Shown here one piece after another: positions 1-3,273 of a stretch of DNA of 3,273 nucleotides (positions are counted from its first letter, which is position 1; each line of letters begins with the position of its first letter). Under the pieces are notes generated by a model. That model did no database searches. It worked only from the letters and a program-made list of their open reading frames with translations, and was not told the origin of the DNA. Position numbers and translations under genes: made by a program. Source of the stretch: Escherichia coli (GTDB taxonomy: Bacteria > Pseudomonadota > Gammaproteobacteria > Enterobacterales > Enterobacteriaceae); NCBI RefSeq assembly GCF_003334255.1, contig NZ_QOWU01000123.1; one strand, 5' to 3'.

Positions 1-29
1 ATCGACGATTGCTGGAAAGGCTGGGCCAT
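1..29 (-). CDS. 5' end of an outward-reading ORF of unknown function (MAQPFQQSS..., runs off the left edge); mirror copy of the start at 3261
   Basis: Minus-strand ATG at 29..27 preceded by the reverse complement of GGAGGAG at 39..33; nine codons are visible before the window edge. It lies inside the left inverted-repeat arm, so it is sequence-identical to the right-arm start. Only a few codons are visible, so coding status is tentative. Confidence 0.3.
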
Positions 30-132
30 ACTCCTCCGGCAGAAGCAGAAAAAGCTTATTATGCTTCCATCGGAAACAATGATCTGGCAGCCTGAGTTCA
101 CAGATAAAACACTCTCCAGGAAACCCGGGGCG
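17..132. repeat. Left arm of long inverted repeat (at least 116 bp)
   Basis: Reverse complement of 3158..3273 equals 17..132 at 115 of 116 positions; the single mismatch is at 78 (A) versus 3212. Pairing stops at 133/3157. The outer end coincides with the window edge, so the repeat may be longer. Confidence 0.93.
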
Positions 133-458
133 GTTCAGATGGGCGTCTAAGTTACCAATTCTCGTCTGATGGCTACATACGGCGGTCAGTTTACGCTTAC
201 AAAACTACAGCCCTGGGTAGTTGCAGTTCAGGACGTTGGGATGATCAGGATGAATGGGGGGAGCAAGCACGGGGAATCAGAGATGCAATTAATGCTAAAC
301 TTGATGATCCGCACAAATGGAAAAGGAAAAAATGCAGGTTGCATATGGAATTCTCCCGGGATGGCACGGCTTTAAAAATATCAACCAGTGACGGCGATAA
401 AGCCTATTGCGAAGCGATAAAGTCAGCAGCCCATAAAGCTAAATTCCCGGCTTTCAAG
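108..458 (+). pseudogene. TolA C-terminal domain (domain III)-like ORF fragment; no in-frame start, 3' end interrupted or displaced by the IS256-family element
   Basis: The frame containing 108..575 is open after a TAA at 105..107 and has no ATG or GTG before 345. Positions 276..458 translate to IRDAINAKLDDPHKWKRKKCRLHMEFSRDGTALKISTSDGDKAYCEAIKSAAHKAKFPAFK. From memory, E. coli TolA ends ...IKSAIESKF...KTCTLRIKLAPDGMLLDIKPEGGDPALCQAALAAAKLAKIPKPP...; the two Cys (codons 333..335 and 408..410) are 25 residues apart in both, with DG and GD at the same offsets. The overlapping ORF from ATG 169 is in a different frame, and a G6 run at 256..261 separates the two frames. Confidence 0.5.
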
Positions 459-459
459 G

Positions 460-481
460 GAGTGTTAGAAATTCTGTGTCA
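460..481. repeat. Putative left terminal inverted repeat of the IS256-family element
   Basis: GAGTGTTAGAAATTCTGTGTCA matches the reverse complement of 3065..3086 (GAGCGCTCAGAATTCTGTGTCA) at 16 of 22 positions, including a perfect 12-bp core. It lies 33 bp upstream of the transposase ATG. Confidence 0.35.
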
Positions 482-514
482 TTCCAGTAATATACAACCA
501 AAAAGGAATGACAC

Positions 515-1046
515 ATGTCCCAACCCTTCGATTTCGATAAAGCGCTTAAGGCCCTCCAGTCCGGCCAAGCATTAACCGGCAAGGATGGTATCCTAACGCC
601 ATTAATCAAACAGTTAACAGAAACCGCTCTGGCCGCTGAACTCGACTCCCATCTGGCTCAGGATGTTGAAGTCAATCGTAAAAATGGTTCCGGAAAAAAG
701 ACCATTAAAGCCCCGACTGGCAGCTTTGAGCTGGCAACTCCACGTGATCGTAATGGTTATTTTGAACCCCAACTGGTGAAGAAGCACCAGACCACGCTGT
801 CTGATGAGCTCGAGCGCAAGATCATTCGCCTGTTCGCGCTGGGGATGAGCTACCAGGATATCAGCCGGGAGATCGAAGATTTATCCCCTTCAGTGTTTCC
901 ACGGCTACCATCAGTGCGGTTACCGATAAAGTCATTCCTGAGTTAAAACAGTGGCAGCAGCGCCCGCTGGAGAAGGTTTATCCCTTCGTCTGGCTGGACG
1001 CCATTCACTATAAAATCCGCGAAGATGGGGGTTATCAGAGCAAGGC
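515..1046 (+). pseudogene. IS256-family transposase, 5' portion; frameshifted near 884..888 and then interrupted by IS2
   Basis: ATG at 515 with AAGGA at 503..507. The translation MSQPFDFDKALKALQSGQALTGKDGILTPLIKQLTETALAAELDSHLAQ...TPRDRNGYFEPQLVKK... carries motifs I recognise from IS256-type (Mutator-like) transposases. The starting frame stops at 944..946, but the homologous sequence continues one frame over from about 883 (IPFSVSTATISAVTDKVIPELKQWQQRPLEKVYPFVWLDAIHYKIREDGGYQSKA), implying a 1-nt indel in the C run 885..888. The frame is then broken at 1047 by IS2. Confidence 0.85.
1042..1046. repeat. IS2 target-site duplication, left copy (AAGGC)
   Basis: AAGGC immediately precedes the IS2 terminus TAGACTGG at 1047 and is repeated at 2378..2382, directly after the other terminus. 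Confidence 0.9.
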
Positions 1047-1087
1047 TAGACTGGCCCCCTAAATCTCCAGACAACCAGTATCACTTA
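1047..1087. repeat. IS2 terminal inverted repeat (insC-proximal end)
   Basis: About 41 bp, imperfectly matching the reverse complement of 2336..2377. Shared blocks are CCCC, TCCAGACA and TATCACTTA. It contains the internal palindrome TATCACTT-ATTT-AAGTGATA at 1079..1098. Confidence 0.6.
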
Positions 1088-1137
1088 TTTAAGTGATAGT
1101 CTTAATACTAGTTTTTAGACTAGTCATTGGAGAACAG

Positions 1138-1503
1138 ATGATTGATGTCTTAGGGCCGGAGAAACGCAGACGGCGTACCACACAGGAAAAGATCGCAATT
1201 GTTCAGCAGAGCTTTGAACCGGGGATGACGGTCTCCCTCGTTGCCCGGCAACATGGTGTAGCAGCCAGCCAGTTATTTCTCTGGCGTAAGCAATACCAGG
1301 AAGGAAGTCTTACTGCTGTCGCCGCCGGAGAACAGGTTGTTCCTGCCTCTGAACTTGCTGCCGCAATGAAGCAGATTAAAGAACTCCAGCGCCTGCTCGG
1401 CAAGAAAACGATGGAAAATGAACTCCTCAAAGAAGCCGTTGAATATGGACGGGCAAAAAAGTGGATAGCGCACGCGCCCTTATTGCCCGGGGATGGGGAG
1501 TAA
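1138..1503 (+). CDS. insC: IS2 OrfA (InsC), 121 aa helix-turn-helix regulator and N-terminal part of the OrfAB transposase
   Basis: ATG at 1138 with GGAGA at 1128..1132. The translation [56 protein letters not shown]...LLPGDGE matches the IS2 InsC sequence as I remember it. The ORF-track start at 1093 is an upstream in-frame extension without an RBS. Confidence 0.95.
1455..1461 (+). other. IS2 programmed -1 ribosomal frameshift site (A AAA AAG) joining insC to insD
   Basis: AAAAAAG lies in the insC/insD overlap, and insD is in the -1 frame relative to insC. This is the known IS3-family recoding arrangement that produces the OrfAB transposase. Confidence 0.8.
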
Positions 1504-2366
1504 GCTTAGTCAGCCGTTGTCTCCGGGTGTCGCGTGCGCAGTTGCACGTCATTCTCAGACGAACCGATGACTGGATGGATGGCCGCCGCAGTCGTCACAC
1601 TGATGATACGGATGTGCTTCTCCGTATACACCATGTTATCGGAGAGCTGCCCACGTATGGTTATCGTTGGGTATGGGCGCTGCTTCGCAGACAGGCAGAA
1701 CTTGATGGTATGCCTGCGATCAATGCCAAACGTGTTTACCGGATCATGCGCCAGAATGCGCTGTTGCTTGAGCGAAAACCTGCTGTACCGCCATCGAAAC
1801 GGGCACATACAGGCAGAGTGGCCGTGAAAGAAAGCAATCAGCGATGGTGCTCTGACGGGTTCGAGTTCTGCTGTGATAACGGAGAGAGACTGCGTGTCAC
1901 GTTCGCGCTGGACTGCTGTGATCGTGAGGCACTGCACTGGGCGGTGACTACCGGCGGCTTCAACAGTGAAACAGTACAGGACGTCATGCTGGGAGCGGTG
2001 GAACGCCGCTTCGGCAACGATCTTCCGTCGTCTCCAGTGGAGTGGCTGACGGATAATGGTTCATGCTACCGGGCTAATGAAACACGCCAGTTCGCCCGGA
2101 TGTTGGGACTTGAACCGAAGAACACGGCGGTGCGGAGTCCGGAGAGTAACGGAATAGCAGAGAGCTTCGTGAAAACGATAAAGCGTGACTACATCAGTAT
2201 CATGCCCAAACCAGACGGGTTAACGGCAGCAAAGAACCTTGCAGAGGCGTTCGAGCATTATAACGAATGGCATCCGCATAGTGCGCTGGGTTATCGCTCG
2301 CCACGGGAATATCTGCGGCAGCGGGCTTGTAATGGGTTAAGTGATAACAGATGTCTGGAAATATAG
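1461..2366 (+). CDS. insD: IS2 OrfB (InsD), 301 aa DDE integrase-like catalytic domain
   Basis: Open frame from GTG at 1461 to TAG at 2364..2366. The translation ...[21 protein letters not shown]...[50 protein letters not shown]... matches IS2 InsD as I remember it, with the IS3-family DDE region. It overlaps insC in the -1 frame. Confidence 0.95.
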
Positions 2367-2377
2367 GGGCAAATCCA
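2336..2377. repeat. IS2 terminal inverted repeat (insD-distal end)
   Basis: Reverse complement TGGATTTGCCCCTATATTTCCAGACATCTGTTATCACTTAAC aligns imperfectly with 1047..1087. Confidence 0.6.
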
Positions 2378-2382
2378 AAGGC
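2378..2382. repeat. IS2 target-site duplication, right copy (AAGGC)
   Basis: Direct repeat of 1042..1046, immediately after the IS2 terminus at 2377. Confidence 0.9.
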
Positions 2383-3053
2383 AGTTTATACCGTACTGGC
2401 GCTGAATCTGGAAGGCAAAAAAGAAGTCCTGGGCCTGTATTTGTCGGAAAGCGAAGGCGCTAACTTCTGGCTGTCAGTATTAAGTGATCTGCAAAACCGT
2501 GGCGTTGAAGACATTCTGATTGCCTGCGTGGATGGGCTGACCGGCTTCCCTGAAGCGATAAACAGCATTTATCCGCAGACAGAGGTACAGTTGTGCGTCA
2601 TTCACCAGATACGTAACTCGATTAAATATGTGGCGTCAAAACACCATAAAGCGTTCATGGCCGACCTGAAGCCAGTGTATCGTGCGGTGTCAAAAGAAGC
2701 AGCGGAAACGGCGCTGGATGAGCTGGAAGCGAAATGGGGGCAGCAATATCCGGTGGTGCTCCAGTCCTGGCGCCGCAAGAGGGAAAATCTGTCAGCGTAC
2801 TTCCGCTATCCGGCGAATATCCGCAAGGTGATCTACACAACCAACGCGATAGAATCAGTCCACCGCCAGTTCAGGAAACTGACCAAAACCTAAAGGTGCT
2901 TTCCCAAATGAAAACAGCCTGTTGAAGCTACTTTATCTGGGACTGATGAACGCACAGGAGAAATGGACAATGCCCATCCAAAGCTGGAATTTGACATTGT
3001 CGCAGTTAGCCATTTATTTTGAAGGGCGGCTGAATAATGTGATGACGCTGTAG
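2378..3053 (+). pseudogene. IS256-family transposase, 3' portion; additional frameshift at about 2891
   Basis: Resumes exactly after IS2 (...YQSKA / VYTVLALNLEGKKEVLGLYLSESEGANFWLSVLSDLQNRGVEDILIACVDGLTGFPEAINSIYPQT...) and runs to TAA at 2891..2893. Homology then continues one frame over from 2892 (KGAFPNENSLLKLLYLGLMNAQEKWTMPIQSWNLTLSQLAIYFEGRLNNVMTL) to TAG at 3051..3053, implying a 1-nt insertion near 2891. The motifs DILIACVDGL...FP and KW.MPIQ.W are typical of IS256-family transposases. Confidence 0.85.
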
Positions 3054-3064
3054 AATTTTTAACG

Positions 3065-3086
3065 TGACACAGAATTCTGAGCGCTC
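3065..3086. repeat. Putative right terminal inverted repeat of the IS256-family element
   Basis: Inverted partner of 460..481; begins 12 bp after the transposase stop. It contains the 8-bp palindrome GAGCGCTC. Confidence 0.35.
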
Positions 3087-3107
3087 TCAAATTAAAATCA
3101 TCGATAT

Positions 3108-3137
3108 TTAACAAGTTTAAATTATTAAGATTATTTT
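3108..3137 (+). promoter_or_regulatory. Candidate sigma70-like promoter in the AT-rich spacer, reading rightward into the right repeat arm
   Basis: TTAACA at 3108..3113 (5 of 6 to TTGACA), then 17-18 bp to TTATTT/TATTTT at 3131..3137. The surrounding 3087..3157 is about 80 percent A+T. Such matches occur readily by chance in AT-rich DNA. Confidence 0.2.
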
Positions 3138-3157
3138 AATCAAGATTAAAAGTGAAT

Positions 3158-3273
3158 CGCCCCGGGTTTCCTGGAGAGTGTTTTATCTGTGAACTCAGGC
3201 TGCCAGATCATCGTTTCCGATGGAAGCATAATAAGCTTTTTCTGCTTCTGCCGGAGGAGTATGGCCCAGCCTT
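3158..3273. repeat. Right arm of long inverted repeat (at least 116 bp)
   Basis: Reverse complement is identical to 17..132 except at one position (3212 C versus 78 A). The arm runs to the last base of the window. Confidence 0.93.
3261..3273 (+). CDS. 5' end of an outward-reading ORF of unknown function (MAQP..., runs off the right edge); mirror copy of the start at 29
   Basis: GGAGGAG at 3253..3259, then ATG at 3261; the frame is open to the window edge. Same sequence as the left-arm copy because it lies in the inverted repeat. Confidence 0.3.

Follow-up and report, generated by a model that had tools for sequence, protein, structure and literature searches.

The window, that is, the whole stretch of 3,273 nucleotides analysed here (Escherichia coli, contig NZ_QOWU01000123.1 of assembly GCF_003334255.1), carries a complete copy of IS2 within the broken transposase gene of an IS256-family element; all stranded features lie on the plus strand unless stated otherwise. 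The pentanucleotide AAGGC occurs at 1042..1046 and again at 2378..2382, and the segment between the two copies, 1047..2377, is exactly 1331 bp long, as the first-pass annotation had reported. A repeat search, together with the single AAGGC of the uninterrupted relatives described below, identifies the pair as a target-site duplication. The segment begins with TAGACTGGCC and ends with GGCAAATCCA; at its left junction, which carries A15, the preceding outer sequence reads ...CAGAGCAAGGC. The repeat extends over 5 bp only: the bases to the left of its two copies differ (GAGC and ATCC), as do those to the right (the first IS2 bases versus AGTTTA). When 1,933 window positions are checked for a 5-mer that recurs at offset 1336, only 1042 gives a match.

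The segment 1047..2377 is a full-length IS2, a member of the IS3 family, that has kept insC, insD, the A6G slip site and its two terminal repeats free of indels. Alignment to IS2A of E. coli K-12 MG1655 (1331 bp, an annotated mobile element) gave 8 substitutions and 0 indels (99.4% identity), with zero differences past IS2 position 900; a count of this kind had been proposed as a check on the first-pass assignment, and it reveals no substantial divergence. The two copies share their 1331-bp length, the layout of IRL, orfA, A6G, orfB and IRR, the 5-bp target duplication and the InsC sequence. IS2 has a left repeat that starts with TA and a right repeat that ends with CA, and here the termini, IRL (42 bp, 1047..1088) and IRR (41 bp, 2337..2377), form imperfect inverted repeats with a 1-base offset; IRR is the same as in K-12 IS2A, and IRL differs from it at positions 15, 32 and 42, with G15A at window 1061 and widespread lineage variants at the other two. 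A further variant, at IS2 position 43 (window 1089) and paired with that at 42, falls just inside the IRL boundary. The 42-bp IRL, the 41-bp IRR and the role of the A6G −1 frameshift site in IS2 have been described previously (PMC3299598).

The product of insC (orfA, 121 aa, 1138..1503) is the same as K-12 InsC and matches NCBIfam NF006928, 'IS2 repressor TnpA', with 276 bits against a cut-off of 229. The programmed −1 frameshift site A AAA AAG (A6G) at 1455..1461, which would yield OrfAB from the two overlapping reading frames, is unchanged in comparison with K-12, and insD (orfB, 301 aa, 1461..2366) is open, its product differing from that of K-12 by a single residue, R70W (C to T at window 1668). 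InsD matches NF006918, 'IS2 transposase TnpB', with 724 bits against a cut-off of 597, and its Pfam domains are HTH_21 (residues 55-104), rve (124-227) and rve_3 (216-281), the DDE integrase core of OrfB being recognized by rve (PF00665, E=2.9e-18) and rve_3 (E=3.4e-18). The first-pass description of insC, insD and the frameshift site as intact holds, and PGAP labels the identical plasmid copy 'IS3-like element IS2 family transposase, programmed frameshift'. IS2 itself is common: megablast with 1047..2377 as query found it in 4,748 of 5,426 complete E. coli genomes (23,051 places), with full-length matches at ≥99% in 2653 records. Three other IS2 copies that were fetched are flanked by the 5-bp repeats ATTAC, ATGCG and TTGCG; the 5-bp rule for this IS3-family element is therefore seen in the gathered data.

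The outer element spans 458..3088, as defined by alignment to four uninterrupted copies, and measures approximately 1295 bp once IS2 and the duplication are subtracted, with homology running from GGGAGTGTTAG to GCGCTCTC. Members of the IS256 family have terminal inverted repeats of approximately 24-30 bp, an 8-9-bp target duplication and a single long gene for a Mutator-like DDE transposase. Here the terminal repeats are IRL at 458-481 (GGGAGTGTTAGAAATTCTGTGTCA) and IRR at 3065-3088 (reverse complement GAGAGCGCTCAGAATTCTGTGTCA), which match at 18/24 positions. The joined central piece of the transposase matches the IS256-family model NF033543 with 304 bits against a cut-off of 150 (405 bits for the intact relative in strain A37), and the N-terminal piece matches profile positions 14-88. 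The nesting of IS2 in an IS256-family transposase gene, which had been put forward as known biology and not as novelty, is confirmed. A target duplication belonging to the outer element itself was not found in the window; AAATTAAA is present on the right only (3089-3096) and the left flank reads ...GGCTTTCAA, whereas chromosomal relatives linked to ireA have AAATTAAA on both sides. The missing duplication fits a copy that has undergone recombination or rearrangement and is no argument against membership of the IS256 family.

The transposase frame of the outer element is not intact, being split by IS2 and also broken at two other places. Its 5' part (515..1046) carries a lesion at 884-887, a 1-bp deletion plus two substitutions (TTTAT-CCCC versus TTTATATGCC), so that the first open reading frame ends early (515..946); this lesion is absent from all IS2-free copies aligned. 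The 3' part (2383..3053) contains an extra C at 2889/2890 (AAAACCTAAAGG versus AAAA-CTAAAGG in A37), with a TAA at 2891-2893. When 1046 is joined to 2383, the central sequence reads ...IREDGGYQSKAVYTVLALNLEGKK... in one frame. The earlier proposal that removal of 1047..2382 makes the transposase frame continuous again is thus correct for the central segment, but not for the gene as a whole, which is also broken at 884-887 and 2889/2890. PGAP marks the interrupted gene 'frameshifted; incomplete' and the IS2-free ireA-linked copies 'frameshifted'.

Four uninterrupted copies of the outer element, of the kind that the first-pass annotation had suggested looking for in related strains, read CAGAGCAAGGCAGTTTATACC and contain a single AAGGC exactly at the position of IS2 in the window. 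These empty-site relatives are 98.9-94.2% identical to the outer element of the window; they include full-length copies at 98.9% (2009C-3133, KC-Dl-1 and others) and the copy in strain A37, which is 94.2% identical and encodes an intact 400-aa transposase, and a left-truncated copy at 99.1-99.2% is found in CFT073 and many ExPEC strains. The closest of them, the ireA-linked element of ExPEC/STEC chromosomes (2009C-3133, KC-Dl-1 and CFT073; 98.9-99.2%), has the same extra C and the same right flank AAATTAAA. In contrast to these chromosomal copies, the window copy is interrupted by IS2 and bears the added 884-887 lesion, and its left flank is a TolA-like plasmid fragment instead of a second AAATTAAA. 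An IS2-free allele of the window's own outer copy, defined by the TolA-fragment left flank and the 884-887 lesion, was not found, the best IS2-free relatives being those at 98.9-99.2%; for this reason, the empty site is reconstructed from relatives and not from an immediate ancestor.

Because all four uninterrupted copies have one AAGGC at the site, the locus is best read as a simple IS2 transposition with a 5-bp target duplication. A single event would have placed IS2 in the ...Q-S-K|A-V... stretch of the IS256-family transposase gene, duplicating the target AAGGC. IS2 moves in two steps, by a copy-out/paste-in route: cleavage at IRR and transfer to IRL produce a figure-of-eight that is turned into a minicircle, in which the joined ends make the strong promoter Pjunc; both ends then attack the target, which generates the flanking direct repeats (PMC3299598). 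The window would be the product of one such event. Since 2009C-3133, KC-Dl-1 and CFT073 also have the extra C at 2889/2890 in their ireA-linked copies, which lack IS2, the outer transposase gene was very probably dead, that is, a pseudogene, before IS2 arrived. As the gene was already broken, the insertion would have been selectively neutral, with no cost to the host. We infer the following sequence of events: the target would have been an already frameshifted pseudogene in the IS-rich ireA (siderophore receptor) module of IncK2/Z plasmids, IS2 would have entered it, and the insertion would then have been inherited passively with the plasmid.

A 120-mer spanning the nested junction at 1046/1047 was recovered from 3 of the 5,426 complete E. 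coli genomes, and one more plasmid with the junction is in PLSDB. All four carriers are IncK2/Z plasmids: NZ_CP060058 (G8) and NZ_CP060062 (G6/7) from human faeces in Germany, CP055726 (pRHB13-C14_3) from a pig farm in the UK, and NZ_CP116070 (pDETEC45) from a human rectal swab in China. They are 100% identical to the window over 135..3147, extending to 135..3273 in three of them, with the same IS2, junctions and outer frameshifts and with ireA downstream; over the 3,013 bp of 135..3147, three carriers compared directly show 0 differences, and the G6/7 plasmid has one base difference, which lies inside IS2. They differ from the window in that a truncated copy of ISEc23 (IS66 family) replaces its first 134 bases, with the same breakpoint, and pDETEC45 differs further in having lost the right-hand IS3-family element. 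Because the nested locus matches across plasmids from Germany, the UK and China, the IS2 insertion is older than the dispersal of the plasmid module, but the spread of the module is itself recent.

The order of features in this IS-dense part of the plasmids is ISEc45, truncated ISEc23, the TolA-like fragment, the IS256-family element with IS2, the IS3-family element, ireA and IS100kyp. On the identical plasmid, PGAP annotates the TolA-like fragment (177..455) as what remains of a plasmid gene whose product has a TolA C-terminal domain, and the fragment is cut off by the outer element; its matches to TolA are weak, and intact homologues on many plasmids match up to 457. In the window, both outermost segments belong to an IS3-family element that is not IS2: the terminal 137 bp of one copy at 1..137, ending ...GGGGCGGTTCA, and, at 3153..3273 on the minus strand, the terminal 121 bp of another copy in inverted orientation, for which plasmid G8 has the PGAP label 'IS3 family transposase, programmed frameshift, ALIL pseudoknot'. 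The first end and the reverse complement of the second (3153-3273) are identical at 119 of 121 bases. None of the four carrier plasmids has the left end at this position, and the exact left junction of IS3-family end and TolA-like fragment (window 1-520) is covered by no record among 5,426 complete E. coli genomes or in PLSDB. Because the left end was matched at this place in no record, the window stems from an unsampled variant of the nested locus, whose source replicon lies outside these collections. An Rfam scan of the window at the gathering threshold returned no match.

Three changes in the window IS2 are absent both from K-12 IS2A and from the two nearest relatives: G15A in IRL, the silent C319A (window 1365), and C622T (window 1668), which causes InsD R70W within the HTH_21 domain. 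The remaining differences from K-12 IS2A, at IS2 positions 32, 42/43, 606 and 900, are each common to at least one of the two nearest fetched copies. When IS2 copies are ranked by identity, two records match at 100% and a third at 99.9%, all of which are the same nested locus, and the next best reaches 99.7%. An exact 61-mer around T622 was recovered from 3 of 5,143 IS2-bearing records (16,309 places in 5,426 genomes), all of them carrier plasmids, and an R70W-bearing IS2 was found nowhere else in these complete genomes, among which are the three host strains with their chromosomes. InsD was also searched against 1.84 billion cluster representatives, and the 70 spanning residue 70 were aligned. 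This residue, in the motif P-T-Y-G-Y-R-R, is arginine in 64 of them, down to 36% identity, and the only tryptophan belongs to a fragment with unrelated upstream sequence. R70W thus radically alters a near-invariant arginine of HTH_21.

Residues 12-19 of IRL are important for recognition by the transposase (Lewis et al., PMC3299598), and G15A falls among them. A15 was sought in IS2 copies that have spread and was seen elsewhere only in a decayed copy at a single IS2 locus by bglB, which occurs on four chromosomes and is apparently one shared locus; the copy fetched, from 90-3040, is frameshifted according to its annotation, has lost 4 bp by deletion and is without A319 and T622. Among the copies searched, neither A15 nor R70W occurs in any IS2 that has multiplied. 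We infer that G15A and R70W would impair transposition. G15A could be harmless, as it gives IRL the base that IRR has at the corresponding position. Most simply, G15A, C319A and R70W would have arisen after insertion, in a copy under no selection; it is possible that an unsampled parental IS2 lineage already had them, three substitutions being few.

Taken on these grounds, it is very likely that the locus reflects a simple IS2 insertion into a dead host gene that was then passively inherited, and that the copy is resident and attenuated or inactive. The copy keeps every structural part for movement (IRL, IRR, orfA and an open orfB together with the A6G slip site), and it would have gained one change in the recognition element of IRL, G15A, and another in HTH_21, R70W. 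Because daughter copies are not detectable, it is most likely attenuated or inactive, even though their absence from three sequenced hosts is in itself weak evidence of inactivity. The first-pass annotation had instead proposed a recent, possibly still active copy, and an IS2 that inserted very recently, is fully active and can still transpose would explain why InsC is the same as in K-12, why insD is open with only one substitution, why the slip site and IRR are unchanged, and why indels are wholly lacking and the duplication is perfect. PGAP calls the IS2 gene intact and not a pseudogene, and the identity of the locus across four plasmids leaves little time since their divergence. Such an insertion is nevertheless unlikely. 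Three changes are found in none of the three comparators, one of them within the IRL recognition element and another replacing by tryptophan an arginine kept in nearly all representatives; the signature is found elsewhere in 0 of 5,426 genomes; and the insertion precedes the dispersal of the plasmids to three countries. The proposal of a recent and possibly still active element is therefore not supported by these data, and a resident, decaying IS2 remains the preferred reading.

A more elaborate reading concerns the origin of the module itself. With AAATTAAA kept on the right only and a fragment of a plasmid gene on the left, the sequence suggests that the ireA module reached the plasmid by recombination between two IS256-family copies and not by simple insertion. 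It is, however, quite improbable that the locus as a whole records a recent capture of chromosomal ireA onto conjugative-type IncK2/Z plasmids by this route, and that, in the source of the window, inverted IS3-family copies on either side of the TolA'-IS256::IS2 segment make it a mobile composite unit. In a minor variant, an ATG in the IRR of IS2 (2351) may drive a putative hybrid 180-aa C-terminal fragment of the IS256 transposase with regulatory activity. A consensus scan of 900-2500 for promoters and terminators detected no promoter-like site and one terminator-like site, which equals the chance level; because the scan is at chance level, it lends no support to an outward-reading promoter or to expression of the hybrid reading frame.

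That IS2 came instead by recombination or a larger rearrangement, with the two AAGGC copies matching by coincidence, is extremely improbable. The region around IS2 is heavily rearranged, and neither the outer element nor the right-hand IS3-family element has a target duplication of its own, but a chance match of flanking 5-mers has a probability of only approximately 0.0013-0.0015 at the background rate computed from the window. The outer sequence is moreover colinear across the join, and exactly one AAGGC in every relative is the signature of simple insertion. The coincidental reading was rejected on the basis of this empty-site alignment and the rarity of a 5-mer match. A chimeric contig in which the IS2 repeat was misplaced inside the IS256-family gene has a negligible probability and was rejected for the IS2 junctions: multi-copy IS2 often confuses assemblers, both ends of the window consist of repeat sequence and no database record joins its left 134 bases to the remainder, but both junctions and all of 135..3147 recur base for base in plasmids that different laboratories, in different countries, assembled independently as complete circles, and neither an exact 5-bp duplication nor private SNPs are expected of a mis-join.

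The nested IS2 is already known and is ordinary biology, since RefSeq annotates the identical form, and it has little meaning beyond bookkeeping. A perfect target duplication, even together with open reading frames, is not enough to show that an insertion sequence is recent or active; in the present case, copy-specific substitutions and a search for daughter copies gave a different answer from the integrity of the duplication and reading frames. The nested IS2 junction, being clean and unique, could serve as a lineage marker for ireA-carrying IncK2/Z plasmids, which are found in humans and pigs on two continents.

The outer IS256-family element (458-3088) lacks an 8-bp target duplication of its own, as seen when its ends (window 458-481 and 3065-3096) were compared with those of two IS2-free relatives, L002 and L004. 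Chromosomal IS256-family copies linked to ireA carry AAATTAAA on both sides, whereas in the window it is present on the right side only. The left flank is instead what remains of a plasmid-type gene for a TolA C-terminal-domain protein (177-455, plus strand), which the outer element truncates at 457/458. The one-sided AAATTAAA and the TolA-like fragment on the left suggest that the outer element is a hybrid produced by recombination between two copies. Intact TolA C-terminal-domain genes are frequent among E. coli plasmids; some records show them beside the relaxase gene nikB.

Two frameshift lesions interrupt the outer transposase, both independent of IS2. The lesion at 884-887 is confined to this plasmid lineage among the copies seen; the other, an extra C at 2889-2890 that creates a TAA stop codon at 2891, is common to all ireA-linked copies examined, including that of CFT073. 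An ORF of 180 aa (2351-2893, plus strand) starts at an ATG within the IRR of IS2, at the 3' end of insD, and continues in frame past the right junction into C-terminal sequence of the outer IS256-family transposase. This hybrid ORF is probably fortuitous, because no promoter-like site was found near it.

At the left end of IS2, positions 42-43 (window 1088-1089) are polymorphic between AA and TT. These two bases form the centre of the palindrome ATCACTTA-NN-TAAGTGAT, so that the change is equivalent to an inversion of that centre; the palindrome falls within IRL residues 39-48, the site reported to bind the OrfA repressor. AA is the majority form, and TT together with G at IS2 position 32 was matched in approximately 600 records. 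A15 of the IRL was found elsewhere at a single locus, adjoining bglB in strain 90-3040 (L013), where the IS2 copy is decayed, with a 4-bp deletion and an annotation as frameshifted. A 65-mer matching this locus occurs in four chromosomes, each with 26-27 IS2 places.

Both ends of the window (1-137 and 3153-3273) are inverted terminal parts of a further IS3-family element other than IS2, with 119 of 121 bases identical; the PGAP label for this element is IS3 family transposase, with an ALIL pseudoknot. No database record has the left copy here: on the far side of the same breakpoint, 137/138, the records carry a truncated ISEc23 of the IS66 family. The right-hand element has no target duplication in G8, and it is missing from pDETEC45 (L011, 7990-8020, against window 3140-3160). 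That plasmid retains the terminal CA of the element and has lost the adjacent AAAAG, reading GATT|CA|GTTTTGAGG; the site is one of imprecise loss of the IS rather than an empty site.

The usual home of ireA is the chromosomal pathogenicity islands of ExPEC. Here it is located on IncK2/Z plasmids (NZ_CP060058, locus L001, and NZ_CP060062) of strains G8 and G6/7, which came from the faeces of a healthy individual in Germany and may belong to a commercial probiotic E. coli preparation. The recombination suggested for the outer element would have transferred the ireA module onto an IncK2/Z plasmid.
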